From positions 128,001 to 192,000 of the forward strand of contig NJBH01000002.1 of the NCBI GenBank assembly GCA_005223125.1: a stretch of DNA of 64,000 nt, given 5' to 3'. The notes beneath the pieces are model-generated. The model searched no databases. It saw only the letters and a program-made list of their open reading frames with translations, and was not told the DNA's origin. The stretch is from Promethearchaeota archaeon Loki_b32 (GTDB lineage Archaea > Asgardarchaeota > Lokiarchaeia > Sigyniarchaeales > SOKP01). This document shows positions 1 through 21,586 of this stretch, in pieces (the stretch's first letter is position 1; each line of letters opens with the position of its first letter). A program made the position numbers and the translations under genes.

Positions 1-2598
1 AACGACAATTAACTGGGGAATTATATGACTTTCTTTCTTAAAATCTTTCATAGCCTCAACCAATTCTTTTCGCCTTTCTTTGTCTAAATGGGTTGTTGGC
101 TCATCCATAATAACTGTGGATATTTGACTTGAAAGTAGCCTTGCAATCGCAAGTCGTAATATGATTGCTATAGCAACTTTTTCACCACCACTTACTGAAT
201 TAATTGAAAGTTTGCCTGTACGCCCAATAATCGTAATATCAAGATCCTCATCAATAGAAATATCTGTAATATTGATATTAAAAGCATCTAAATATTCTTT
301 TGCGAATTCAGTAATTTTGGGAGCAAATATTTTTCTTATTGCTTTTTGTAATCCGTCTTTAGAAAAGGCAGCTCTAATTTTTAATAAAAATTTGTTAAAA
401 TTTCGAATTTTGTCAAATTCTTTTAATTTTTCCTTAAATTCTTGAATATTTTGCTCCTTTTCTTTTAATTGAGTTTCTTGGTTTTTTATTTGTTTAATAA
501 GTAATTTCTTATTACTCTTTTTTGTATTTACGCTATCTTTAATTTCATTATATTCATTCATAGCATTCTCATAGTCTTCTTTCGTATATACTAATTCTTT
601 TATCTTTTCATTAGTATCTTTTAAATTTTTCTTTAAAATTTCTAATTCTTTATTATTTTTATCCAAATCTTGTTTATATTCTTCTAACTTTTCACTTTTG
701 ACTATATACCCATCACATTTTTCTTTTATATTTCTAAGATGTTTTAATTCTTTTTCGGGGTCTTTTGGTTTTTCTTTAAAATTCTTAAGAACTGACGTAA
801 TCGAAGATTCTATTTTATTTAAATCTGATTGTAAAATTTGAAGATGATTTTTTATTTCATTTACATCTCGCTTTTCACTTTTTAAAGCTTCTGCTGCTGC
901 TTTATATAAAATGAATTTTTTCTTTATTAATTTCATTTGCTTTTTATTATCTTCAACAATTTTTTCCAATTCGGATTTTTCTGATAATTTAATTTGTTCT
1001 TGTTTTACCTTTTCTTCCAAACCACTTATTTTTGACTGTAGATTATTAAGTTTTTTCTCAAGTTCATGATAGCGGTCCAGGTCTAATTTTTTAATTTCTT
1101 CAAGTCTATTCGTTAACTTGGACTCCTCCTCATCTAGTCTTTGTTTTTGTTTGTCATTTTTTTTTAATTGTTCTTTTTTATTGGCACTTTCTTCACTAAA
1201 ATTATTAATTACCTTATTCCGATGATCTTCGGTTAAATCACTTGAACAGACTGGACATTTTGTACTCTCTCCGAGGATCTTTAAATATTCATCAATTTCT
1301 TCAATCCTTCCTTTCATCTTACCTGAAAGATCTATTAAATTTCTAACCTTATTGTTGATATCGTTAACATTTTTTTCTAATTTTTGGATTAATTTCTGTT
1401 TCTCGGAGATATCTACTTTTGGTAAGTATTTTAGAGTATTTTTTTCGATCTTAATTATTTCTTCTTGAAATTCCTTAATATTTTCGTTATAGTTCTTTAT
1501 ATCTGCATTGAATTTTGCTACTTGAATTTCAATTTCATTATATATCTTTAACTCTTTTTGTTCTTCTTCGACTTTCTTTTCAGTTTCTTGGTATTGTATA
1601 TAGAATTCCTTATTTGCCTCTTTTTTATCATGCCATCCCTCTACTCTATCGAGATCATTAGTATTAGTCTTTATATCATTCTCTTTATTTTTTTTTTTAT
1701 TTAATAAATCAATATAGCTCTCATAATGCTCAATATTTTTTATCTGTGGTCGAAGTTTTTTTGCTTCTTCTTTAGCACTTCTGGCTTCATCCACTTGTTT
1801 TGCTAACTTTTCGACCATTTTATTTACCGAAGAGATTTTTTCATTAAGTTCTGTCTGTTCATTGGTCATCTTTTCATTGTCTTCACGCTTTGTTTCCCAT
1901 AACTCTTTTTTCTTTAAGGCTTTTTTTAACGATTCTTCTTCTATTTTTATTTCCTCATCAATCTTTGAGACATTATCTTTGAGTTCTTTAATGCTTAACT
2001 CCAACTTGTCTTTAGCTTCTTGATGATCTTCTAATTTAGCCTGAATTACATCATAATCTTTTAATTTATCTTCAAAGGCATCTATAACAGCTTTCATATT
2101 ATCATAAGCTTTTTTCAACTTATCTATTTCTAATAATTTGGCCATCACTTCTTTTCGTTCTGCAGGTCTTCCATCAATTAAATTCGTAATTTCTCCCTGC
2201 CTAATAAAAATTGAATTGATAATCGCATCTTTATCCATTCCTAAAATTTTAGCAATTTCTTCACTTACCCCAGTCTGTTTTGTTGCTTTTGAGATACCAT
2301 TTTCTCTAATTACTGCATAAGGTCCGCTGTCTGTTTCTCTTCTTCTGACTACTTCATAATCATTTCCATTATGCTCAAAAATTAATTTTACTTCTGCATT
2401 ATTAGTACCTTTTCTGATAAGATCATCAATATTATCCCCTCTAACGTGTTCGCCACAAATTGAATAATAAATCCCATCGATAATTGAGGATTTCCCGGAA
2501 CCATTTTCTCCTCGAAAGACCGAAACCCCTCTTGGAAAATCAAATTTAGTATCTTTATGAGAAATAAAATTCTTTAATTCAATTCTTTTCAATATCAT
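1..2598 (-). CDS. rad50: Rad50 SMC-family ATPase (3' end runs off the window)
   Basis: Absent from the ORF track; translated manually from ATG at 2598: MILKRIELKNFISHKDTKFDFPRGVSVFRGENGSGKSSI (Walker A). Long coiled coil, in-frame zinc hook CPVC at 1246-1257, signature SGGE and Walker B/D-loop IMDEPTTHLD near the window start. Overlaps the end of mre11. Confidence 0.95.
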   Translation of the reverse strand, partial: MILKRIELKNFISHKDTKFDFPRGVSVFRGENGSGKSSIIDGIYYSICGEHVRGDNIDDLIRKGTNNAEVKLIFEHNGNDYEVVRRRETDSGPYAVIRENGISKATKQTGVSEEIAKILGMDKDAIINSIFIRQGEITNLIDGRPAERKEVMAKLLEIDKLKKAYDNMKAVIDAFEDKLKDYDVIQAKLEDHQEAKDKLELSIKELKDNVSKIDEEIKIEEESLKKALKKKELWETKREDNEKMTNEQTELNEKISSVNKMVEKLAKQVDEARSAKEEAKKLRPQIKNIEHYESYIDLLNKKKNKENDIKTNTNDLDRVEGWHDKKEANKEFYIQYQETEKKVEEEQKELKIYNEIEIQVAKFNADIKNYNENIKEFQEEIIKIEKNTLKYLPKVDISEKQKLIQKLEKNVNDINNKVRNLIDLSGKMKGRIEEIDEYLKILGESTKCPVCSSDLTEDHRNKVINNFSEESANKKEQLKKNDKQKQRLDEEESKLTNRLEEIKKLDLDRYHELEKKLNNLQSKISGLEEKVKQEQIKLSEKSELEKIVEDNKKQMKLIKKKFILYKAAAEALKSEKRDVNEIKNHLQILQSDLNKIESSITSVLKNFKEKPKDPEKELKHLRNIKEKCDGYIVKSEKLEEYKQDLDKNNKELEILKKNLKDTNEKIKELVYTKEDYENAMNEYNEIKDSVNTKKSNKKLLIKQIKNQETQLKEKEQNIQEFKEKLKEFDKIRNFNKFLLKIRAAFSKDGLQKAIRKIFAPKITEFAKEYLDAFNINITDISIDEDLDITIIGRTGKLSINSVSGGEKVAIAIILRLAIARLLSSQISTVIMDEPTTHLDKERRKELVEAMKDFKKESHIIPQLIVV

Positions 2599-3700
2599 CT
2601 TCGATAAATTCCTCCTTAAAATATTTATTCGCTAAATTTATAGCTGAATCTTTATTTCCATTCGAAAGATCATCATAAAGACCTTTTGCAAATTGTCCCA
2701 TATTTTCATTCTCAAAATGCTCCACAAAAATTGCTTGAAGATCATAGTTATCTTTTGAAATTTTAATCTCTTTTGACTTTTTTTCACTAAACCTTATTTT
2801 ATGATATATGACTTTATCCTTCAATAATTTCTCAACGTTCTGCTGAATAAGTGCTCTATCTAAATCCTTTCCGTATATTTTAAGATTAACTACTGGTTTA
2901 TTTTCTTTTTCCAGATATTTTGGCAGGTCATTGACCTCTGATGCTTCTAATTCAAGTCTTAATTGTGGTCGGATATCTAATGGTATGAATTCATATTCAA
3001 TATTCCCATCTTCAATATCTACTATATAAAAACCTTTCCCTTTCTTCTGCCAAGTTGTAACCTCATCTTGCTTTTTAATCTCTGTTGCCCCGCTATATAC
3101 TAAGTAGCCCTCTCCGAATTTTAAGACATTAGTTGCATGAATATGTCCTAATGCATAATAACTTGCTTTTTTTGGTAAATCATCTAAAGTTAATTGATAT
3201 ACTCCCTTAAAAGGTAAATATTTTTTAATTGCTTGGTGAAGAATTAAGACAGAATTTTTAGAATTTTCGGCTATCTTATCAAATTTTTTCAATTCTTTCT
3301 TTAAATGCTCTTTATTCATAGTCCTTAGATTTGATATTCCTGCAAATAGTACATCCTTAATTTTTATTGATTCTAAAGTAAAGCTTTTCCCTAGTATCTG
3401 AATGTTAAATAATTCATGTGGTATTTTAGCTTTTCTTTTAGGTATATCATGTTCTCCTAAGACAGTCAAAAACTTAATTTTACCATTTAATTTATCTATC
3501 CCTTCTTTAAAACTGAGAAGTGCTTTTATAGGAGGATGATAATTATCAAATAGATCACCCGCATGAATTATAACATCCACTCGTTCTTCTAAGCATTTAT
3601 CTATAACTTGATGAAATGCATCATAAAAATCCTGTTCTCGTATATCCAGATTATATTGCTTATATCCTAAGTGGGTGTCTGATACGTGAGCTATTCTCAT
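2579..3700 (-). CDS. mre11: Mre11 double-strand-break repair nuclease
   Basis: Phosphoesterase motifs SDTHLG, AGDLFD, LGEHD (usually GNHD), LHQ, ALGHIH, YSG; directly upstream of rad50. Confidence 0.93.
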   Translation of the reverse strand: MRIAHVSDTHLGYKQYNLDIREQDFYDAFHQVIDKCLEERVDVIIHAGDLFDNYHPPIKALLSFKEGIDKLNGKIKFLTVLGEHDIPKRKAKIPHELFNIQILGKSFTLESIKIKDVLFAGISNLRTMNKEHLKKELKKFDKIAENSKNSVLILHQAIKKYLPFKGVYQLTLDDLPKKASYYALGHIHATNVLKFGEGYLVYSGATEIKKQDEVTTWQKKGKGFYIVDIEDGNIEYEFIPLDIRPQLRLELEASEVNDLPKYLEKENKPVVNLKIYGKDLDRALIQQNVEKLLKDKVIYHKIRFSEKKSKEIKISKDNYDLQAIFVEHFENENMGQFAKGLYDDLSNGNKDSAINLANKYFKEEFIEDDIEKN

Positions 3701-3706
3701 ACTTTT

Positions 3707-5353
3707 TCACTCCAGCATACCTCTTGTATCTTCTAAATCTTGTCGTAGATCTTCTTCTCTTCGCTGTTCTTCATTATCAACATATTCACGGGCTTCGTTT
3801 AACATACCTAATAGATCTAAATCTGCTCCCCCTTCTTGAGTATTTCGTCTTCTTACTTTAACCATAACGGGGGCTCTTGTCAAATTACCAACAACTACAG
3901 CTTCTCCAATGTTTAATCCCGGTAAATCACTTAACAGATCTTCACTTAATTTTTCAGAACTTCTCTTAATTGCGGTTTGATCTTCTGCATTGGTTATTTT
4001 TAAAATCATTTGGCTATTGCATTGACTTAATGCATCCTGGTCCACTTTATAAGGTCTCTGAGTTATTAATGCCTGAAAGACTCCAAATTTCCTACCCTCA
4101 GCTGCAATTTCTTTTACTATATCTATTGAATATCCACCGCCTCTTCTCCCAGGTTTATTAGGTAAAAAACGATGAGCTTCTTCAATAAATACAAAGACGG
4201 GAAAATGATATTCATCACTTCTTCTTTGATCATATATTTCATTAAGTATTCGTGAAGCTATATAGTCTGCTACATAATCTGGGATTCCAGATAAATCAAT
4301 TACAGAAACATGCTTTGGACGTATAATATCACAGACAGGGGTTGTTGTATCGGCAAAAATTTGTAATCTGTGCATTCTTCTTACATATCTCAATGCATTG
4401 CGGGAATCATTTGTATCTGCATTAGTTAATTCATTAATTAGATCATCTAAATTATAACCCGTAGCAGAATCTAGATTCGCTAAAGCACTTTCTATTGCTG
4501 TTCTAATTCGAGTAAATCTTTCAGGAATACCACAGATATTAAATATTTCAAATGCATCTAAATCAGCAAAACGAATTGAATATTGTTCGATTTCCCTTCC
4601 AACATCAGCATCAGTATATATTCCTGTACTATTAGGTGTCTGAAATACTCCCATTCGATTAATTGTTTCAATTTCATCTTGCCTTCCTTCGTCATTTTGT
4701 TCGCCTTCTTCTAAATTTTCTTCACTTTCTTCTTCTAATTGATTTCCCAATAATACATAATCCGCATGCGGATCAATGATAACAATTGTAGCTCCTTTTT
4801 TGTATAATTCTTCAACAAGAACTCCTCCCAAGTAACTTTTTCCACCTCCAGTCTGAGCCAATATTGAGATATGTCTTTGAAAACCTTTTATAGATATATA
4901 AACAGGTACATCTGAACGTGTAATTAAATGTCCAATATATAATCCTTCTTCTTCGGGATATGAATAAAATTCAGCTAAAAGGTCATTTGAAGCTAAATAA
5001 ACAGGATTACCCGGTTTTATTGCCCTTCTTGGCTGAAAGATATTTCCATTATGTAAATATCCTAGAACTCGTGCTTTAGCAAAGCATCGAGCATCAGCTA
5101 ATCCCGCACTTATAATTTTTTCAGCATCTTCCATTTTCAGATCGGCGACAAGTGCACGAGAATCCGCAAATACTTCAAATATTTGAGCAATAATACTTAC
5201 GTCAGTTTCTCGCATTATTCCTGCAATATTTATTAGTTCTTTCGAATGTATAGCGACATATTCTAATCTATTAATATCTTTATTAGTCGAAAAATAAAAT
5301 TCGGAAGTATTAACTTCTCCAACTATTATTCCTATTTTAGGGATACCTGACAC
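3707..5353 (-). CDS. herA: HerA bipolar DNA helicase/translocase
   Basis: N-terminal HAS-barrel-like region, Walker A AQTGGGKS, IIDPHADY, Walker B FIEEAHRF, EGRKFG, TQRP, SQCN. Confidence 0.93.
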   Translation of the reverse strand: MSGIPKIGIIVGEVNTSEFYFSTNKDINRLEYVAIHSKELINIAGIMRETDVSIIAQIFEVFADSRALVADLKMEDAEKIISAGLADARCFAKARVLGYLHNGNIFQPRRAIKPGNPVYLASNDLLAEFYSYPEEEGLYIGHLITRSDVPVYISIKGFQRHISILAQTGGGKSYLGGVLVEELYKKGATIVIIDPHADYVLLGNQLEEESEENLEEGEQNDEGRQDEIETINRMGVFQTPNSTGIYTDADVGREIEQYSIRFADLDAFEIFNICGIPERFTRIRTAIESALANLDSATGYNLDDLINELTNADTNDSRNALRYVRRMHRLQIFADTTTPVCDIIRPKHVSVIDLSGIPDYVADYIASRILNEIYDQRRSDEYHFPVFVFIEEAHRFLPNKPGRRGGGYSIDIVKEIAAEGRKFGVFQALITQRPYKVDQDALSQCNSQMILKITNAEDQTAIKRSSEKLSEDLLSDLPGLNIGEAVVVGNLTRAPVMVKVRRRNTQEGGADLDLLGMLNEAREYVDNEEQRREEDLRQDLEDTRGMLE

Positions 5354-6599
5354 GTCTATAACCTCTTGGTGTTGCTTTTTTTCCTATAATTTCTTCAAAT
5401 TTTTTTAAATATAATTCTTTAAAATCTACTCGTGATAATTTTACTTCATTATCCACGGCTGTAAGCCATATATTATAATTTTCCAACCCGCAATATCCCG
5501 CTGAAATTAATTTTAATACTTCATTTAAATCAATGTCTATCAATTTTGGCCATCCAATATCTAATAGTCTTTTATTAATACCAAAATACCATGCAGGTAT
5601 ATCTATTCGCATTGGAGTATCAATTCGAGTTGGTAAAATATGAAATGATATGATTGCTGGAAAGTCCAGCATCTCAAAAATAATTTTTTGAGCGTGCTTA
5701 ATAAAATCTGGATCTTCAGATAACGTTGGGAAATTAGATTCAATAAATTGTCTAAAATTTGTTCTTATTAATTTTTCCGCTCGTCGCCATCTGGTGCTAG
5801 CACCTAATAATAATGGTTTAGTATATCCAGAATCCTTTGCGTTACTAAGAATTAATAAAGAATCGGGTTTCCTTGCGATTAATTCTTCGGTCAACAAGAT
5901 AATATCTTTATCTCTTATTGATTTTGCTAATTTGAATGCATTTTTTGGTCTATCCAACGCTTCTGAAAGAAGTCTTTTTCTCAATTTTTTATCTGAAATT
6001 TTCTCTTTTAAGATCTCCTTTATTAAGAATTCTCTATAAAAAGAGGTTCTACTCTCTTTACTAATCCCTATAAGTAAAATTCCCTTTTCTTTACATAATT
6101 TTAATAATTTTAAATAAATTTCAAAATAATCTAGGATAAATCCCTTATTATTTTCCAGTTTAAGTTCCAATGGTAAGTGAACCATTCTACCATAAAGAGA
6201 ACCATCAATTAATAATATACCTTCAAATTGTTTTTCAATAGCTTGAATTCCTGCTAAATGTTCCGTCCATTCCATTACTCTTCCAATAAAAGTTGATTGA
6301 GTCATAATATTAGAGAAGTCAAAATCCGTAAAAATGGTTCTATACTTATTTTTCTTACCTAATGCTAAAGCACGACAGACAAAAAAGAAGCCTCCATTTG
6401 ATGTTGGACATCTCCCTCGACTACTATCTATTGCTATGACATCTTGTTCAGGGATACAGGAGTCTAATTGATAATTTATCCAATGAGCTTTAAATTTATT
6501 TTCATAAAATTTATTAATTTTTTTGTCCTCAAAATTTTCTAAAATCCTCTTAGATTTAGTATTTAAATCTACGATGAATTCTGTTAGAAATTCTGGCAT
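5337..6599 (-). CDS. nurA: NurA 5'-3' nuclease
   Basis: AIDSS, LIDGSL, IGISKES and a C-terminal YNIWLTAVDNEVKL motif; overlaps the herA start by 17 bp. Confidence 0.88.
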   Translation of the reverse strand: MPEFLTEFIVDLNTKSKRILENFEDKKINKFYENKFKAHWINYQLDSCIPEQDVIAIDSSRGRCPTSNGGFFFVCRALALGKKNKYRTIFTDFDFSNIMTQSTFIGRVMEWTEHLAGIQAIEKQFEGILLIDGSLYGRMVHLPLELKLENNKGFILDYFEIYLKLLKLCKEKGILLIGISKESRTSFYREFLIKEILKEKISDKKLRKRLLSEALDRPKNAFKLAKSIRDKDIILLTEELIARKPDSLLILSNAKDSGYTKPLLLGASTRWRRAEKLIRTNFRQFIESNFPTLSEDPDFIKHAQKIIFEMLDFPAIISFHILPTRIDTPMRIDIPAWYFGINKRLLDIGWPKLIDIDLNEVLKLISAGYCGLENYNIWLTAVDNEVKLSRVDFKELYLKKFEEIIGKKATPRGYRRVRYP

Positions 6600-6791
6600 T
6601 TTATTATTATATTTTACATTTTTTTCAAATTTTTTGTCTTTAATATAAAGAATACAAATTCAATATTATTTAAATCTTAAAGCTTAATCTGTTAACTTTT
6701 CTTTGCCAAAACGGAATTTTTCCTTTTATATTTTTTTGATTAATGCCTCTTAAGGCTTTTTAGATTCAAATGAGCAATGCTTTTCTATTTT

Positions 6792-8270
6792 TTACATATA
6801 ATTGCTATATGCTGTAGGAGGTGTAATATCTCTACCTTTCAATTCTCCCATTATTTTTCCTACTTTTTTTGATACTGAGAGTGTAACGGGCATTCTTTTA
6901 CAAAAATCTGTGCTATTCCAGTCTAATTTTGTTAAATTGATTATATCTCTTGCTAATATTTCAGTATCACTATCACTTTTTTCTACAATTACTTCAATAG
7001 GTTTTGGTATCATACTACCTGGATATGTATCAAGACAAGGAATGTAACCAGTTGTATAAAGATTAAAGACTTTTTTATTATTGGAATTTCTTTCAAATAC
7101 AGAACCACGAGCTATAGGATAATCTGTTGAGGTAATTGCATTAAAATGACAATATTCTTTAATATGAATAAAATCTTGGATTTCAATATTTTTTGTTGAT
7201 TTTAAAAATCCTTCATTTTCTTCCTCAGTATATTCCGATTTTTTATGTACAACAATTCTATTAGGCTTACTATTATGGTGTTGTCTTTTATATAAGTTAA
7301 TAGCTTGGGACAAAATATCTTTTGCTTGTTCTTCTGTAAGATTGGTTCTTCTAATATCTTCTTCATGTTCAACTTTTAATTCTAAACCTCTAGCCACTTG
7401 AGAGTCACCAGTCCTCATATAGACCTGAGCTATAGCAGCTTTAATAACTACACTATCTCTTTTATTAATATCATAGTAAAATGAAATTCCAACATGAACA
7501 GTTTCAGGATTTAAATCAGCTAATTTCCAGGGAATACCTGAAAATTTATAATATTGGGCAACAACATAGTTCCAAGCAATTGAAGCAGGATCTTCCAAAT
7601 TCCCTCCTTTGAATTCCAATGTTTGAGGAAGCATTAATTGTGTTCGCAAATTCAACTCATATCCTAGAACTTTTATATAATTATGGAAATCATAAAATAT
7701 TGGACGTTCACTTTGATCCATTGAAGCTATTCTCTGTAAATCTCGAAAATTCCGATCGCTTAGTCGGATTTTCTTATCTTTTGTAAATGGATCTGAACAA
7801 GCTTCTAGAATTTTTTTAGGAATAGTAATAATAATAACAGGTCTTGGAAGATTTTGCCCACTCAAATCTTTCAGAATCTGCTTTATATGTTCTGAAAATT
7901 CAACAATTCTTTCATTTCGGTTAGCAATATTAAGAATTTTTTCAATATTTTGTGAAGAAATTTCTTGACAATAATTATCATCTTTCTCCATATAAAATCC
8001 TAACGGACCATCTTGATATAATCCTGGAAAATCAAGATTTCTTATATTTGAATTAGGATATGTCACACCTTCTATTGAATATTGTAATAAAGAAAGAAAA
8101 TCAATTGCCGCATTAATTGATTTTTTCGATCCAATTATTCCTATAGGAATTCTTAAATTATTATGTTCCAATCCATTTGGTTTATAATTTAATAATCCTA
8201 CTCTTGGATCAGCACATGTAGTTTTATCTCTGAAAATTAAATCCGGTTCTGGCACTAAAAACGATCTCAT
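6792..8270 (-). CDS. ago: Short prokaryotic Argonaute (MID-PIWI), catalytically inactive
   Basis: N-terminal PEPDLIF..DPRVGL, FPG motif, MID pocket FHNYIK..TQ..YYKFSGIPWKL (HK type), PIWI features YPGSMIPKP, LTKLDWN, MPVTL, C-terminal YM. Catalytic Asp positions replaced (VGISFY, VHKKS). No N/PAZ domains; 492 aa. Confidence 0.93.
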   Translation of the reverse strand: MRSFLVPEPDLIFRDKTTCADPRVGLLNYKPNGLEHNNLRIPIGIIGSKKSINAAIDFLSLLQYSIEGVTYPNSNIRNLDFPGLYQDGPLGFYMEKDDNYCQEISSQNIEKILNIANRNERIVEFSEHIKQILKDLSGQNLPRPVIIITIPKKILEACSDPFTKDKKIRLSDRNFRDLQRIASMDQSERPIFYDFHNYIKVLGYELNLRTQLMLPQTLEFKGGNLEDPASIAWNYVVAQYYKFSGIPWKLADLNPETVHVGISFYYDINKRDSVVIKAAIAQVYMRTGDSQVARGLELKVEHEEDIRRTNLTEEQAKDILSQAINLYKRQHHNSKPNRIVVHKKSEYTEEENEGFLKSTKNIEIQDFIHIKEYCHFNAITSTDYPIARGSVFERNSNNKKVFNLYTTGYIPCLDTYPGSMIPKPIEVIVEKSDSDTEILARDIINLTKLDWNSTDFCKRMPVTLSVSKKVGKIMGELKGRDITPPTAYSNYM

Positions 8271-8285
8271 TTTTTATCTCCTCTT

Positions 8286-9707
8286 TTAATTAAAAAATTT
8301 ATCTATTCTTGTATCATTAACTCCGATTGTTTTAGAGCTCCAATTGACTGTATGCTCCATCAAGGGCTTTATTATAAATTCATTAAACCAGGGATCTTTA
8401 TCTCGGCTAAAATAATCACTAGTTAAGAAATCGCTCCAAAATTCTAACCTAAGTCTCCAACTTGGATTTCTATTCCATTTTGGATTCAAATACTTTTTAT
8501 GTAGATTACTTGAATGGTCTCCTGTTATCGTATTTACACCATTTCTAGTAAAAATAAATCTAGGCCAAATAAATAAACCCATTTTACCATCATATTCATC
8601 TAATCGAATGAAAACAGATTTATGCTCAACATAATACAGTGTTCCATCTGGGCTATAAATTGGTTTAGTTACTGTTTTAATTTTTCTATTGGGTAGATTA
8701 ATTTTAATTGGTTCTACACTGCCCTTTGGTTTATCATCAATAGGTTCGTCATAAGCAAAGAAAAAATCACTCTCCCATCTTCTTAAACCTTTACACCACA
8801 AATATCTTCGTAATGATGTATAAAGTAATTCCCTTTTCCTCTGAATATCAAGCCTATCTGTATCATGGTCATATACTGGTCCTGAAATATGGGGTCTAAG
8901 AACATTCAGATTCTTCTCAAATGACCTTACAACTGGTTCAGGTGCTTCAAATCGTGGAACAACAAATTCAGGTAACCTTTGCTTTTCTTCAGATCTAACT
9001 CTGTCAATTATAGTCTTTTTAAGTTTGAATTTGGATTTAACTTGCCAAAATTTTTGCGGATATTGTAATTCCATAAAATTTAATATAAGATTGTCCTTTT
9101 CTCTCGTTGGATCTCTTCGATTCTTAATTTCTCTTAACAATCTTTTATGCTGTGAATTTAGATTTTTTCTAAAAATATCTTCTCTATCTCTTACTCGTTC
9201 GACTAAACCAAGTAGGGAACAAACCTTTACATCAGTATTTCTAAAAAACTCTAAAATTTCTGATTCATTAGCGGAATTTAACTTTTCTACTTTTTTCTCA
9301 TCAAAATTTAATCCTTCCTTATTATTAAACCAATTTAAAATTTCTTCCTTTTCTGCTTCCCTTGTTAATACTTTTTTAGTCTGATTTTTTTTATTAAATT
9401 TATTCGCAAAAATTACAAATCTAAATCTTCTTTCAGGTCTTAAAATTAACCAATAATAGAAATAGTCAAATATTTCGTGTCTAAGATTTTCAGATTTAGC
9501 AAAAATCGAGACTTGAGTATTTTTAGCTTCTATCCATAAATTTTCTTTCTTATTATCCATGATAATATCAGATAAAGTCCCCTCATTTAAGGAATTCTTA
9601 GTTAAATGATAACCTTGAGTTTGATAATACCTTATAATGTATTTTTTATATAATTCTGAATTATAATTACGAGCTTCTCTCTCTGATTCAAAATCTTCCC
9701 ATGACAT
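8286..9707 (-). CDS. PD-(D/E)xK (Mrr/REase-like) nuclease fused to an APAZ domain; effector partner of the short pAgo
   Basis: N-terminal SDIIMDNKKENLWIEAK (D..ExK). C-terminal APAZ-like segment VEHKSV..IWPRFIFTRNG..NPKWNRNPSWRLRLEFWSDFL. Lies 15 bp upstream of the pAgo with a GAGGAG SD in the gap. Confidence 0.85.
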   Translation of the reverse strand: MSWEDFESEREARNYNSELYKKYIIRYYQTQGYHLTKNSLNEGTLSDIIMDNKKENLWIEAKNTQVSIFAKSENLRHEIFDYFYYWLILRPERRFRFVIFANKFNKKNQTKKVLTREAEKEEILNWFNNKEGLNFDEKKVEKLNSANESEILEFFRNTDVKVCSLLGLVERVRDREDIFRKNLNSQHKRLLREIKNRRDPTREKDNLILNFMELQYPQKFWQVKSKFKLKKTIIDRVRSEEKQRLPEFVVPRFEAPEPVVRSFEKNLNVLRPHISGPVYDHDTDRLDIQRKRELLYTSLRRYLWCKGLRRWESDFFFAYDEPIDDKPKGSVEPIKINLPNRKIKTVTKPIYSPDGTLYYVEHKSVFIRLDEYDGKMGLFIWPRFIFTRNGVNTITGDHSSNLHKKYLNPKWNRNPSWRLRLEFWSDFLTSDYFSRDKDPWFNEFIIKPLMEHTVNWSSKTIGVNDTRIDKFFN

Positions 9708-9905: not shown

Positions 9906-11033
9906 ATGCCTGAAAAAAATTCGAATTTTCCAAAGATTAGAAATTTAGTTTTGGATGCTGTAAAGGAAGGTATTAATGAGAAAAAGATTTTTTATGATAT
10001 TTCTCCTAATTGGCATCAATATTTTCATTATGAAAGTAATCCTTTAGACTCATTTACTCCACATGAACCTTTTGAAGACCATCTAAATGAATTATTTGTT
10101 AATAGAGAAGCGGAAATTCATTTAATTTCAAATTATTTTGGAAGTATAAAAACTATTCCATATAACATGCATATCGCAATAATAGGTTCTAAAGGAATAG
10201 GTAAGCATACGACCCTAAAAATAATATGTAAAATCATTCAAGAATCGTTTCCAGAAATATCTTTTGAATATTATAACTTAAAAACAGGTAAAGATTTTAA
10301 AAATAATTCAGATTTAGAAGATTTTGAGTTAAATAATTTAGATAAACAAGAGCTAGATATTCGCCTCATCTCTTGTTCTGGTAAAAATAAGTGGTTGGTT
10401 TTAAAGAGAATTAATAACTATAAGAAGAAAAGTAAAATTTTTTTCACTATCTGGCATACTAGGGATTTTCCTATGAATGAAGGTTTAAAAATAAACAAAA
10501 TCATTTATTTTCGAAATTACAATAAAGAAGTTGTTACTAAAATTTTCGAGCGTAGAATTAAAAAGTTCCTAAATGAGAAAAAAGGAAATAAAAGTTACAT
10601 TAATAGTCTTTACAAGAATCTTCTTCCTTCTATTATCAGTGCATTTCAAGGTAATTTAAAACTTAGTTTTCATTTCTTTAAACAAATTCATCAATTAGCA
10701 AAAATGCAGAATTTAGATGAAATTCCACAATCCTTAATAGAGGAGTTAATGAATAATTATCTATTAATAAAAAGCCAAAAGATTACAAATAAAGAAAAAG
10801 AGATAATTAATTATCTTTTAAATGCTCAAAATGTTAAATTCATCACTACCAGCGATTTAAGAGATGATCTTCAATTTGATCGAACAGTAGCATGGAGATA
10901 CTTAGAGAATTTAACTAAAAAAAACATATTAACACGAGTAAAATACGGAAATCCCTCAAGATATAAAATCAATGACATTTTTCTGAGTTTTTATGAAGAT
11001 GAATTAAAAAATAGAATAATATTTAAAGAATGA
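9906..11033 (+). CDS. P-loop (archaeal ATPase/Cdc6-like) protein with C-terminal winged HTH; probably a degenerate ATPase
   Basis: FVNREAEI, Walker A-like GSKGIGKHT, no clear acidic Walker B; wHTH ITTSDLRDDLQFDRTVAWRYLENL. Confidence 0.65.
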   Translation: MPEKNSNFPKIRNLVLDAVKEGINEKKIFYDISPNWHQYFHYESNPLDSFTPHEPFEDHLNELFVNREAEIHLISNYFGSIKTIPYNMHIAIIGSKGIGKHTTLKIICKIIQESFPEISFEYYNLKTGKDFKNNSDLEDFELNNLDKQELDIRLISCSGKNKWLVLKRINNYKKKSKIFFTIWHTRDFPMNEGLKINKIIYFRNYNKEVVTKIFERRIKKFLNEKKGNKSYINSLYKNLLPSIISAFQGNLKLSFHFFKQIHQLAKMQNLDEIPQSLIEELMNNYLLIKSQKITNKEKEIINYLLNAQNVKFITTSDLRDDLQFDRTVAWRYLENLTKKNILTRVKYGNPSRYKINDIFLSFYEDELKNRIIFKE

Positions 11034-11046
11034 TAAGTGAAACAAC

Positions 11047-11847
11047 ATGCCATTATTGAGAATCTTTCATGATGTATATACCAAATCTGAAATAAGTCGA
11101 ATAGAAGAAAATATTAAAATTAAAAACGAAAATTTTGCTGAATTTGATGAAGAGAAGAAAATATTAAAACCTGGTTTTCGTAAAAGTAAACAAATCTTCA
11201 AACCTACTTCAAAAGGATATTATCTCACGGAATATTTTGAGATTGATAAAAGGTCAATGCCCTCCTATTATACTGAGATGTATTACTTTAAAAACCTGAC
11301 TGAAAAAATCGAATCAGAAGAAAAATTTTATCCCATCCTTATAAAAATCTTATTCAACAGGAAAAAAAAAGTATTATGTTTATATAGTAAACAAATTTTA
11401 AGAAATGATCTTGTTAATAATTTAGTAATCAAATTAAGGAATAAACACGGTTTAGATTTTAAGACACAACCCCAGAATTATATTTTTAAAGAAGATGAAT
11501 TAGATGACCTTGTTGATGCATTAGATATAAAAGACTACACTGCAATTTCTGTCTGGGATAAAGATAATAGGGCGATCTTAGAGAATCCTCAGAAGATTAC
11601 TGAGACTGAAAAGTTTATATCGTTCTTAAATGATACATATAAGGGTAAGTGGCATTACTTAAAAGTACCTTTTGATGAGCTGAATATCGAACTTAAAATT
11701 AATAATAAGACTCAGAAATACATCACTTTTATCAACGATTTTGTTGATGATATGCATTTAACTAATGCAGTAGATTTTTTAGTTTCGAAGATTTTTGAAG
11801 TTGAGGATTTCAGTGGTTCAAAACAAGTATTTATAAATTCATTTTAA
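11047..11847 (+). CDS. Hypothetical protein with a C-terminal PIP-box-like motif
   Basis: 266-aa ORF 13 bp downstream of the ATPase-wHTH gene; ends KQVFINSF. Confidence 0.65.
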   Translation: MPLLRIFHDVYTKSEISRIEENIKIKNENFAEFDEEKKILKPGFRKSKQIFKPTSKGYYLTEYFEIDKRSMPSYYTEMYYFKNLTEKIESEEKFYPILIKILFNRKKKVLCLYSKQILRNDLVNNLVIKLRNKHGLDFKTQPQNYIFKEDELDDLVDALDIKDYTAISVWDKDNRAILENPQKITETEKFISFLNDTYKGKWHYLKVPFDELNIELKINNKTQKYITFINDFVDDMHLTNAVDFLVSKIFEVEDFSGSKQVFINSF

Positions 11848-13317: not shown

Positions 13318-14295
13318 ATGCTAGAAGAAGTAAATTCACATCGAAATATAATTGATTACATATTTCTATTACGGATTATGAAGTTCTCAAAATCAGGGCT
13401 TATTAAATTATTTCAAATTCCTACAATGGAGATATCTCGATTAAAATCCTTAAATAAAGAATTTTTAACTAAGATTCTGCTTACTAAAAAGAAATCAAAC
13501 CTAGAATATTTCAACAAAATTTCAAAACTATATGATTTTAATCCTAACGAAGAGGAATACTCTGAATTGGAGAAATTAGTTAAATATTGCATCCAGAAAA
13601 ATATTACAATTGCAACACCTTTCGATAAAAACATTCCTAAATTGCTTCAAATTTTGCAGCCCGGAAAGCGTGATTTAGTATTTATCAAAGGTCAGATTAT
13701 AGATAAAGATTTAAAATCTTACTCTATATGTGGATCTCGAACGCCAACAAAAGAAGCAATTACTAAGACTCGGCAAATCGCGGAATTGCTAGCTAAATAT
13801 AAATTCACGCTTATAAATGGTTTTGCAAAAGGTATAGATATTGAGGCTTTTATCGGAGCTAATGCGCAAAATGGGAGATATATAGGTGTTTTAGCATCCG
13901 GAGTTGAAAATGTTTATCCTAATGAGAATAAACAATATGTACAGTCAGTTATTAAAAATGGTGCCTTAATATCGCAAAATCTTTTATGGAATCGTATTAA
14001 TAAGTTCGCACTACAAATGAGAAACCGATTTTCTGCACAATTATCATTAGGTAGCATCTTCATTGAAGGTAATTATAGATCAGGAACGATATGGCAATAT
14101 AAATTTGCGAAAGAAATTATGCGCCCTGTATTTTATCTGGAGCCAGAGAATTGGAATCACGATAACACACATATTTTAAAGATTGTTAGGGATGGGGGCG
14201 GAATTGAAATAAAAAATGATCTTAGTAATATCAAAAATATAATTGAGATTTTAGAAAAGGAGTATTCTAAGAGAATGGAGAGCTTTAATGACTAA
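13318..14295 (+). CDS. dprA: DprA/Smf family DNA-processing protein
   Basis: ICGSR, NGFAKGID, GVLASG, VYPNEN, RNRF, EGNYRSGT motifs. Confidence 0.88.
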   Translation: MLEEVNSHRNIIDYIFLLRIMKFSKSGLIKLFQIPTMEISRLKSLNKEFLTKILLTKKKSNLEYFNKISKLYDFNPNEEEYSELEKLVKYCIQKNITIATPFDKNIPKLLQILQPGKRDLVFIKGQIIDKDLKSYSICGSRTPTKEAITKTRQIAELLAKYKFTLINGFAKGIDIEAFIGANAQNGRYIGVLASGVENVYPNENKQYVQSVIKNGALISQNLLWNRINKFALQMRNRFSAQLSLGSIFIEGNYRSGTIWQYKFAKEIMRPVFYLEPENWNHDNTHILKIVRDGGGIEIKNDLSNIKNIIEILEKEYSKRMESFND

Positions 14296-15010
14296 GAAAA
14301 TAAAGTTTGATTTTGGAATATTTAAATGCAGCGAAATTACATTGAATTCAATTCCGCTTATTAAAGGGAGATTCTCGCTAAATATCAATCCCAATTTTTC
14401 AAAAGAATTTAAGAGACCTTTCTGGTTTTATGATTTAACAAAAAGATTAAAAATTGATGAGGTTATTTCTTTGGGTGCATATTATCCCCAGAGGAATTTT
14501 AATAGTGATTTAGAAGGCACTCCTAATCTAAGATATCCTGCATTTTCAGATATTTTGTTCAATTCTAAGTCAGGACCATTGCATAGAGCTCGGAGCGATT
14601 ATATAATAGAGTCCAGAAAGCAGCAATTAAGAATAATTTCAAATTTTTATGCTAATTATTTGAAAAATGTAATTGGATCATTAAATTATAATGAAATAAT
14701 TCCTGTACCTGCTAAATTAGAGTATTCCTATAATTCAGTTGAAATAATTAGTATGGAATTTAGCAATCTTTTTAATATTCCAATGAATATAAGTAGGATA
14801 GCACGAATAGATGATTATACAAAGGAATACTCGATAATATGTGAAAATGATAATTTAAATCAGAGAAGAATATTATTAATAGATGATATTATTACTGATG
14901 GAGAAACTAAAGAGAAAATATTTTTCAGATTGAATGAAAAGGGTTGCAATAATATAGATATGATAACTCTCGCAAGAACGGATCACAATATCTATGAGTA
15001 TAATGAATAA
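14288..15010 (+). CDS. ComF-like phosphoribosyltransferase
   Basis: IIPVP and PRPP-binding loop RRILLIDDIITDGET; overlaps dprA by 8 bp. Confidence 0.82.
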   Translation: MTKKIKFDFGIFKCSEITLNSIPLIKGRFSLNINPNFSKEFKRPFWFYDLTKRLKIDEVISLGAYYPQRNFNSDLEGTPNLRYPAFSDILFNSKSGPLHRARSDYIIESRKQQLRIISNFYANYLKNVIGSLNYNEIIPVPAKLEYSYNSVEIISMEFSNLFNIPMNISRIARIDDYTKEYSIICENDNLNQRRILLIDDIITDGETKEKIFFRLNEKGCNNIDMITLARTDHNIYEYNE

Positions 15011-15884: not shown

Positions 15885-16766
15885 ATGTTTAATAAAGAAC
15901 TCAAAGATATCACCGAAGAAGATATTTTAAAAATCGAAAAAGATCCAGTTAATTTTGAATCATTTGAAATTGAATATAAAAAACGATTTGATGGAGAAGC
16001 TGGAGAATTAAGAAGGGATGTTATTCAATTTGCTAATGGAAATGTTGTAGGACGTATAATATATGGAATATCAAATGATCCAATAAATGTTATTGGAATA
16101 GAGAAGAGTGAAATAGATATCTTGAAAAACATTTTAAATGATGTTCTTCCCAGAAAAATAGATCCAATCCTATCTCCATTTCCCCAGTATCAAGCTGTTC
16201 CTTTATCAAATGGAAAATATGTTTTTATAATAGAAATATTTCCAAAAAGCTATGGTGTTTATGGTATAAGAGTCCATGAAGATTTAACTAATAGGAATTA
16301 TAAGAGATATGAATTCTATAATCGAATGGATGGAAGTAAACATCAAATGAATATAGAAGAACTTGTTGAATTAATTGAAAGTAAAAGTAGAGGTAAGAAA
16401 AAACATTTAGAAGTTTCAATCCATGGGTTTTTTCTAATAGGCGGATTTGATGATGTTTTCATCTCAGTTAAAGCTGTAAATAAATCAGAAAGACCAATAG
16501 TTGTGACATCATACGGAATTTCTGTACTTGAGAAGGAAAAAGTTGTATATATCTCACCACTACATCCAGAATTAATGGTTTTAAATACAAAACTACCAAT
16601 AAAGTTAGAAGATGGTGAATCTTGTAATGCATATATTGATAGACCTTCTTTTGAAGAAATAATGAAAAAGGAAGGTTGGAGTTATCCAATACAAGTACAA
16701 GGTGTTTTTACCACTAATGATGGTAAGTATTTTTCAGAGGATATTATTTTAAAAGAAATTAAATAA
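15885..16766 (+). CDS. Schlafen/AlbA_2 domain protein with a C-terminal Ig-like beta domain
   Basis: ESFEIEYK, RDVIQFANGNVVGRIIYGI, FYNRMDGS; C-terminal beta-rich domain ISVKAVNKSERPIVV..LPIKLEDGES. Confidence 0.82.
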   Translation: MFNKELKDITEEDILKIEKDPVNFESFEIEYKKRFDGEAGELRRDVIQFANGNVVGRIIYGISNDPINVIGIEKSEIDILKNILNDVLPRKIDPILSPFPQYQAVPLSNGKYVFIIEIFPKSYGVYGIRVHEDLTNRNYKRYEFYNRMDGSKHQMNIEELVELIESKSRGKKKHLEVSIHGFFLIGGFDDVFISVKAVNKSERPIVVTSYGISVLEKEKVVYISPLHPELMVLNTKLPIKLEDGESCNAYIDRPSFEEIMKKEGWSYPIQVQGVFTTNDGKYFSEDIILKEIK

Positions 16767-18430: not shown

Positions 18431-18434
18431 TATT

Positions 18435-18506
18435 GGGCCTATGGATTAGTGGAAGATCGTTCGCTTGGCATGCGAAAGGCCGCGGGTTCAATTCCCGCTA
18501 GGTCCA
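18435..18506 (+). tRNA. tRNA-Ala(GGC)
   Basis: Acceptor stem GGGCCTA/TAGGTCC with the G3:U70 Ala determinant, anticodon arm TTCGC-TTGGCAT-GCGAA, T-arm GCGGG-TTCAATT-CCCGC, discriminator A, no encoded CCA, no intron. Confidence 0.96.
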
Positions 18507-18724
18507 TTTCGGATTCTTATTATTGACAAATATACTCTAAATAAACCAATGAATCTTGTACATTGGTTAAAGTTTAAAAAAAAACCAATAATTTAATTAT
18601 CTAGTCTTAGGGTAAAAAGAAAAAAAGAGAAAAACTTAGAATTTCATCTTATCTTGTTCAATATCAAACATCCAACATTAAACTTCCATCATCAAACTTC
18701 CACCAATAAAAAAAAGGAAAAGAA

Positions 18725-19963: not shown

Positions 19964-21586
19964 TTATAAACCCAAAACGTCACACATCCTTTTAGCAGCG
20001 TCATTCTCAGCCAATTTTTTACTTTTTGCTTTTCCTATTATCGTATCATCACGATTTTTGAAAAATCCTTGAAAGTTATTTATATTTGTTCCTGGAACAA
20101 TGCTTAATTCTACTGTATAAGTGGGAGAATGATTTGGACCATCTCTATTTATCACTTTATAAATTGGCAATTTAAAATGGTTTTGTTGACAAAATTCGTG
20201 AAGTAATGATTTAGGATTTTTATCTCTATTATCTTTTTGAGCCAAATTTTTTATTAATTTTTCAAGACGAAAGAAATCCTCATCTCTATTTTGATTAGGA
20301 TTTTCAGTTTCAATTTTTAGAGTTTTAATATTTTCTTTTTTGACTTTAGGAAAAATCAAATCATTTTCTTCAAGTCTTTTTTCAATTTTAGGCGTTTTTT
20401 TTCTCAGCTTAACAAATTTGATTTTATCTTTAAGTTTTTTAAACCATAATGATTTATTCAATAAATTCTTCTTTGATTCAGCTTGATTAAAATCTCCATT
20501 TTCTTCACTTTCACTTTTCTGGAGTATTCTTTTATTATTAGCATTTATTTGGTCAAGGGTTAGCGAATGTCTTTTAATATATGGAATGTACAATAGAAAA
20601 GGTTTTTCAATCGAATTTACACGAATAATACAATAACCCATTTGTAGCATAGATAGGTATTCTTCATGTTCTTCATCAAGATTGAGTAGTTTACGCAATG
20701 TCTCTTTTTGCATATGGTTCTTAAAAGTAATTAACACTCCACAATTCGCTAAAATCTCTTCACTAACATCGGGACGTGTGGCAATAGTAATTAAGCATTC
20801 ACCAGTCCCTCTTAATAAAAGAGCAATATCTTCAATATAAGTCGAGATTTTAGTTTTGTCAGATAGTCCCCTGGGAGCAAAGTATTGAGCATCTTCAATA
20901 ATAGTCATATGTCTTATAGTTGTGTAGTCTTCCGAACCTTTAGATAAATTTTTATCCCATAAGTATTTTAAAATCATGTTTAAAAAGAATATAGCATCTT
21001 CTTTTTCTCCACCAAGGCGAATAATTGAGCTTAAATCAATAAGAATGTCTCTTTCAAATAATTTTTTTACATCTAATTTATTTTTTGTTTCAAAAATCGC
21101 CTTAATAGGACCAACAGAAAATCTTCTTATCCTATTTTTAACACTGATTATTGATTGGTCTAAAAATGGAATATTTCTTTTTTCTTTTTGAAGATATTCT
21201 TCGCATTTTTCGTAGAATCCTTCCCAACTCTGATATTCCTTGCTGCTACAAACTTCAGTTAAAATATCAACTAATACTTTTTGCATTTGAGGTGTAAATT
21301 CTGCGTGTGCTTCCAACATCTGGGCACTTTTAAAAATCGCAAATATTCTCTCTGCATGAACTTCGGGATTACTTCCTTCTGGATTAAAAATATTTATTGA
21401 AAAATTTTCTCCAGGTCTTATGATTAGTAGGTCATTGAGTTTCTCTTGTAAGAAATTGTATTCTCCTTTGAATTCTACAAGCATTATTGGTGTTTTATAA
21501 TGCTTTTTAAAATTCATTAAAAAGAATTGTAAAAAATTACTTTTTCCTGCTCCTGTTGAACCACATACAAACATATGTCGCTCCAA
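19964..21586 (-). CDS. HerA/FtsK-family (DUF87-like) ATPase fused to a C-terminal dsRNA-binding domain
   Basis: RHMFVCGSTGAGKS, VEFKGEY, IIEDAQ, ATRP; C-terminal NPKSLLHEFCQQ..GPNHSPTYTVEL..GKAKSKKLAENDAAKRM. Frame is open upstream to ATT at 21691. Confidence 0.85.
   Translation of the reverse strand: MERHMFVCGSTGAGKSNFLQFFLMNFKKHYKTPIMLVEFKGEYNFLQEKLNDLLIIRPGENFSINIFNPEGSNPEVHAERIFAIFKSAQMLEAHAEFTPQMQKVLVDILTEVCSSKEYQSWEGFYEKCEEYLQKEKRNIPFLDQSIISVKNRIRRFSVGPIKAIFETKNKLDVKKLFERDILIDLSSIIRLGGEKEDAIFFLNMILKYLWDKNLSKGSEDYTTIRHMTIIEDAQYFAPRGLSDKTKISTYIEDIALLLRGTGECLITIATRPDVSEEILANCGVLITFKNHMQKETLRKLLNLDEEHEEYLSMLQMGYCIIRVNSIEKPFLLYIPYIKRHSLTLDQINANNKRILQKSESEENGDFNQAESKKNLLNKSLWFKKLKDKIKFVKLRKKTPKIEKRLEENDLIFPKVKKENIKTLKIETENPNQNRDEDFFRLEKLIKNLAQKDNRDKNPKSLLHEFCQQNHFKLPIYKVINRDGPNHSPTYTVELSIVPGTNINNFQGFFKNRDDTIIGKAKSKKLAENDAAKRMCDVLGL

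Follow-up and report, generated by a model that had tools for sequence, protein, structure and literature searches.

We analysed a 64,000-nucleotide stretch of the Lokiarchaeia assembly Loki_b32 (the window; contig C21:128001-192000 of a genome that is 95% complete), one end of which carries a short prokaryotic Argonaute (pAgo) pair beside a nurA-herA-mre11-rad50 operon for DNA end resection. The initial annotation had described six co-oriented minus-strand genes, REase-APAZ, pAgo, nurA, herA, mre11 and rad50, and all six open reading frames were confirmed at the coordinates and in the order claimed (Table 1). A spacer of 15 bp separates the REase-APAZ and short pAgo genes, the gap between pAgo and nurA is 192 bp (6600-6791), herA overlaps nurA by 17 bp and is separated from mre11 by 6 bp, and rad50 and mre11 overlap by 20 bp. 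Catalytic motifs were found in HerA, Rad50, NurA and Mre11; in alignments NurA residues D58 and D132 are invariant, and Mre11 reads GEH at the usual GNH. Defence genes adjoin the locus as had been noted, but since they enclose both sides, with jetABCD continuing past the window edge, the operon lies inside a defence-like island and not at its border.

Table 1. Features of the locus (window positions unless a contig is named)
Feature	Position	Strand	Remarks
jetA-jetB-jetC-jetD, Wadjet-like	contig C21:127858-121474	same strand as rad50	52 bp after rad50 stop
rad50	1..2598	-	AAA_23 and Rad50 zinc hook; 895 amino acids (aa) full length; last 90 nt beyond window
mre11, clade A	2579..3700	-	Metallophos family match; tree
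herA ATPase, clade A	3707..5353	-	DUF87 E 4e-36; Walker A/B
nurA, accessory clade A	5337..6599	-	PF09376; NurA family match
TATA-like box of nurA, TTTAAATA	6667..6674	-	75 nt before nurA start
Scar: 17 codons that match the C-terminal end of an L190-family long pAgo	6706..6756	-	BLOSUM score 65; falls on last 18 residues
Short pAgo (MID-PIWI)	6792..8270	-	492 aa; Piwi family match; PADLOC pAgo_I 385 bits
PD-(D/E)xK nuclease-APAZ effector	8286..9707	-	473 aa; PADLOC Aga_REase_Archaea 86 bits
P-loop ATPase-winged helix-turn-helix (wHTH), front-pair gene 1, divergent	9906..11033	+	weak Pfam matches
Orphan 266-aa protein, front-pair gene 2	11047..11847	+	PCNA-box-like tail

Judged by its distribution and phylogeny, the window operon is an accessory copy and not the housekeeping set, a vertically inherited set being retained elsewhere in the genome. 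The initial annotation had allowed that it might be the only resection operon of the genome; however, contig C3 holds a second nurA, herA occurs again on C4, C50 and C58, and C58 also bears a second mre11-rad50 pair. The C3 nurA is the housekeeping copy, with 68-85% orthologues across the genus, and the C58 mre11 was found in 14 of 24 congeners. Among 160 other genomes of the Lokiarchaeia, just 8 contain a close match to the window nurA, which is related at 50-56% identity to proteins from Helarchaeota, Archaeoglobus and Methanomicrobia. In a Mre11 tree, in which long branches leave the deep order unsure, the window copy falls into a 100/100 clade (clade A) with Archaeoglobus and Helarchaeota copies, apart from both housekeeping types of the genus. 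Its four genes retain active-site motifs as those of a housekeeping operon would, but they are not a single, vertically inherited, syntenic copy, and the suspicion that the operon is simply syntenic in relatives lacking the pAgo does not hold, the window operon not being the genus-wide syntenic one. The housekeeping slot itself holds a canonical nurA-herA-mre11-rad50 set in about 22 of 53 genomes, and in 14 of 24 the same flanks enclose a non-orthologous herA/331-aa/mre11/rad50 set, which the window genome carries at C58:47177-53605 (L002).

Like the archaeal HerA-NurA/Mre11-Rad50 operon (PMC13748450), the window operon comprises four genes in one operon with motifs retained, but it is a second, patchy copy in a defence island. 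HerA, NurA and SbcCD paralogues also occur beside CRISPR loci, where Cas-HerA, Cas-NurA, SbcC and SbcD are likewise repair paralogues joined to a defence system (PMC3973734); the window operon differs in being joined to an Argonaute and Wadjet-like genes. No nurA was found in viral contigs. In Archaeoglobus fulgidus DSM 8774 (L197), a clade A operon is preceded by Cas10, by cas1/2/4, by 4.5 kb without genes that are probably a CRISPR array, and by a CARF-wHTH gene.

Long Argonautes and Wadjet-like genes beside resection operons

The initial annotation had proposed a partnership between Argonaute and resection genes, to be doubted if the association did not recur in independent lineages. The linkage does recur, but with long pAgos as the partner; such a pAgo was replaced in the window by the short pair, whose orthologues stand without the operon. 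On metagenome contig L190, which is 98% identical from nurA through jetC, a 789-aa long pAgo lies 99 bp upstream of nurA. This protein retains D582, D649 and D766, has CtAgo of APACE1 as its nearest structure (E 6e-86) and is probably catalytic. In L192 (nurA 86% identical), the upstream gene encodes a divergent 966-aa Argonaute, a call that comes from hhalign (96%, E 5e-9), the single-sequence model having a predicted local distance difference test score (pLDDT) of 33; a relative of this protein, broken at an assembly gap, lies upstream in G038 (E 3e-17). In G098 (nurA 70%), an insert of 4.5 kb stands between a 757-aa pAgo and nurA; the repeat of 149 nt at its borders takes in the nurA start. 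Four more long pAgos (G018, G107, G079 and G099) precede NurA-like, HerA, Mre11 and Rad50 genes of two further clades, the NurA call for the first genes being weak (E 6e-6 to 5e-3) and Mre11 being fused to Rad50 at one locus. The clade A operon of G098 is followed by a BREX-like cluster (L086:4764-17822; BrxC 542 bits).

Thus, at eight loci other than the window, a long pAgo lies directly or originally upstream of a resection operon. Three long-pAgo families (X, Y and Z) without any BLAST match between their PIWI halves are paired with resection clades A, B, D and E, whose Mre11 proteins are 20-30% identical, in eight combinations; gene order is constant and the spacing is 88-190 bp in most. 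No Argonaute was found upstream of the 18 housekeeping operons of the genus. Pure chance as the explanation of the pAgo adjacency was dropped on finding the long-pAgo loci G098 and L190.

Downstream of the window operon, jetA-jetB-jetC-jetD encode, in this order, a protein resembling MukF/JetA, one of 223 aa, an SMC protein and a JetD-type Toprim nuclease. JetD_C scored above the cut-off, the JetC match was weak, JetA resembled MukF/JetA (0.93/0.91) and JetB matched no family. The genes share with Wadjet JetABCD the kleisin-like, small, SMC and Toprim components in the order A-B-C-D (PMC10586767), but form a divergent Asgard family that nearly always follows a resection operon: at eight of nine distinct jetABCD loci, the genes directly before are a HerA-Mre11-Rad50 operon belonging to one of clades A, B and C. 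In L102, a JetC 84% identical to that of the window genome stands behind a Mre11 that is just 25% identical. The family was found in 5 of 161 genomes of the class, and a search of 400 genomes of the phylum added none with JetC. In the clade C resection train before jetABCD (L094/L095, L097, L103, L106 and L108), HerA is 800 aa long, the NurA-like gene is very divergent and one additional gene, of 235 aa, is present. In L001 (7663-12958), four genes continue the strand after jetD: a tetratricopeptide repeat (TPR) gene, a GHKL-like ATPase, a PD-T4-7-like gene (113 bits) and a gene for 235 aa. Of these, the ATPase and TPR genes are also retained behind jetD in G038.

Literature searches found no link between Wadjet and resection genes, and the main texts of the pAgo surveys consulted mention none of NurA, Rad50 and Mre11 as pAgo partners. 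Each part is of a known kind; the combinations of long pAgo with resection and of Wadjet with resection appear to be undescribed.

The operon could instead be mobile repair or self-protection cargo uncoupled from its neighbours, the promoter region serving as a recombination hotspot for cassette exchange. Clade A is an apparent housekeeping operon in Helarchaeota, the housekeeping slot of the genus has itself been displaced non-orthologously, neighbours vary (BREX, UvrD, OLD, CRISPR, HD) and nurA has its own TATA box, all of which would fit. We nevertheless consider this unlikely, given the eight combinations of Argonaute families and resection clades in one order and at similar spacing, the retention of a resection operon by Wadjet through three clade exchanges, and the lack of Argonautes at the housekeeping copies.

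Argonaute exchange at the window locus

Between the short pAgo and nurA, a scar matches the C-terminus of the L190-type long pAgo, with a score reached by none of 2000 dinucleotide shuffles and none of 2000 genomic controls. The locus matches L190 at about 100% from the start codon of nurA onwards, but at 66-74% over the preceding 150 bp. The scar therefore stems from a cousin of the pAgo gene in L190, and the shift places a recombination point at the nurA start, where either strain may be the recombinant. No long pAgo was found elsewhere in the window genome. The sequence thus shows that the ancestral gene upstream of the operon was a long pAgo, and the short module is best read as a later occupant. 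The window genome and the 98%-identical contig form a natural pair in which the Argonaute alone differs.

The box that had been placed about 70 bp upstream of nurA is present at 75 nt, but it does not settle the choice between chance insertion and coupling that had been attached to it, since the same box stands at -74 in L190, where a long pAgo is upstream. Since 9% of shuffles also contain an exact match, its conserved position was counted as the evidence. A sigma-70 promoter scan is not informative for archaea.

The pair now in the slot resembles SPARDA (Nba, Xau and Eae; bioRxiv 10.1101/2025.04.08.647717) in having an inactive MID-PIWI pAgo directly after a PD-(D/E)xK-APAZ gene, and SPARDA proteins are its best sequence and fold matches. 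The short pAgo lacks the catalytic aspartates (Ser263, no RDG motif) and its family profile matches EaeSPARDA Ago 9qbp (E 2e-70). In the effector, nuclease residues E18, D47, E60 and K62 are invariant in an alignment of 30 homologues, and the APAZ part of the profile, and only that part, matches SPARDA DREN-APAZ (E 5e-16). The effector model (pLDDT 83) has SPARDA chains as its top fold matches, with root-mean-square deviations of 12-15 A over full-length alignments. By analogy, we infer that the pair is SPARDA-like in action. It differs in that its nuclease domain matches PADLOC Aga_REase_Archaea and not DREN (DUF4365) by sequence, and in being an archaeal pair whose effector family has a PCNA-box-like tail. 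The tail motif, Q-x-x-[LIM]-x-x-[FY], occurs in 21 of 58 distinct REase-APAZ tails versus 13 of 666 other genes (2%), as well as on most front-pair orphans (window 11820-11847); in the window REase-APAZ tail (8286-8320), Asp replaces the Gln. Its conservation in the family offers a lead towards PCNA docking. Alternatively, the tail might be autoinhibitory, as it is in XauSPARDA. New in this locus are the long-pAgo scar and the PCNA-box-like tail on the effector family.

Was the exchange of one Argonaute for another functional, the short pAgo/REase-APAZ pair adopting an operon that makes its single-stranded DNA targets or repairs its breaks? An Argonaute did replace an Argonaute in one slot and left a co-oriented operon intact, no terminator-like site was found in the 192-bp gap, short pAgos need single-stranded targets, and the genome retains no long pAgo. 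The Bathyarchaeia-like contigs L131 and L132 show a second adjacency. Among the 37 short-pAgo lineages for which 1.5 kb or more of downstream sequence was available, however, these contigs are the only 2 near nurA, and they represent one event, with an opposite-strand gene intervening and housekeeping surroundings. The closest short-pAgo orthologues (83-85%; G102, G131 and L110) lack the operon, and at the DNA level the short module and front pair share 83-84% identity with the cassettes of G131 and L110, neither of which is followed by nurA. Moreover, long and short cassettes alike are headed by the front pair, or by CARF-wHTH and metallo-beta-lactamase nuclease genes. These shared heads provide a route for an Argonaute swap without functional need, and recombination alone would explain the exchange. 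SPARDA systems also function as two genes in E. coli. Together, these points make a functional adoption quite unlikely.

A possible role in processing invader DNA

On balance, we moderately favour the reading that nurA-herA-mre11-rad50 is a mobile, accessory set of end-resection genes that serves long pAgo and Wadjet, and that the short module joined it later. Mre11-Rad50 would find invader DNA ends, either on incoming linear DNA or on circles opened by JetD or long pAgo, and HerA-NurA would degrade these ends and so finish the invader. Their degradation would in turn provide the long pAgo with small DNA guides and single-stranded targets, a part played in bacteria by RecBCD/AddAB or ACE1. CbAgo receives guides from RecBCD (10.1101/2020.03.01.971358), and in cyanobacteria without RecBCD, ACE1 takes this role (PMC12094033). 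The machine would also clear the products of Wadjet, which cuts circular DNA and spares linear DNA. In the window genome, the cassette of front pair, REase-APAZ and short pAgo would have displaced the long pAgo; the short pair would be a self-sufficient SPARDA-like suicide nuclease, with RNA guide and DNA target by analogy, and perhaps docked on PCNA. The operon would be dispensable to this pair and is probably retained on account of Wadjet, under its own promoter. The mixing of unrelated pAgo and resection partners suggests coupling through DNA and not through protein contact.

APACE1 (PMC12094033) and CbAgo with RecBCD (10.1101/2020.03.01.971358) are alike in that a long pAgo relies on a nuclease for guides, and among structures CtAgo of APACE1 lies closest to the displaced pAgo family. 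Their partners differ: APACE1 combines a long-A pAgo with the Cas4-family ACE1, and the window type has a resection machine of four genes. NurA and HerA are named as partners in neither paper. The window locus is not an APACE1 system, there being no long pAgo in the genome and no ACE-like gene after the L190 pAgo.

Several points weigh against a module serving long pAgo and Wadjet. All of the support is gene order, and defence islands shuffle cassettes. About half of the clade A and B operons with known upstream DNA lack an Argonaute (L193, G155, G080, G160, Helarchaeota and A. fulgidus), long pAgos of these families also occur without the operon (G158, G245 and G308), family Y lacks the fourth catalytic residue, and loci of one pAgo family are kin and not independent. 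As read from gene neighbourhoods, the Argonaute-resection link is frequent and not obligatory.

A broader and more doubtful proposal is that in archaea the four genes form a dedicated, exchangeable and shared immune hub, which would turn invader ends into Argonaute guides or targets, finish Wadjet-cut circles and serve even a PCNA-tethered short suicide Argonaute. A co-encoded resection operon that serves defence would also show Mre11-Rad50 in use against foreign DNA in archaeal relatives of eukaryotes; in eukaryotes, the Mre11-Rad50 complex restricts viruses. The guide source for Argonautes in cells without RecBCD or AddAB is a stated open question (PMC12094033), which a co-encoded operon makes testable. 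The fate of DNA after Wadjet opening is addressable with the same mesophilic cassette.

Neighbouring genes

The front pair occupies the same position in L062, L110, L119, L085, L192, L198, L199 and L202, and its P-loop ATPase-wHTH protein is probably a regulator. For the orphan partner, an RdgC-like identity was not confirmed (RdgC score only 0.80) and no named family matched. Farther into the island, a DprA and phosphoribosyltransferase pair (13318-15010), ShosTA-like by PADLOC, has a 99% identical counterpart in G096, at a distance of 1.1 kb from a further short-pAgo pair; a Schlafen/AlbA-like gene follows at 15885-16766. Near the right end of the island is a tRNA-Ala gene (18434-18507), for which no duplicate was found in a search for an attachment-site repeat. 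At 19964-21586, a HerA-like ATPase ends in a double-stranded RNA-binding-like domain and has a 64% paralogue on C48.

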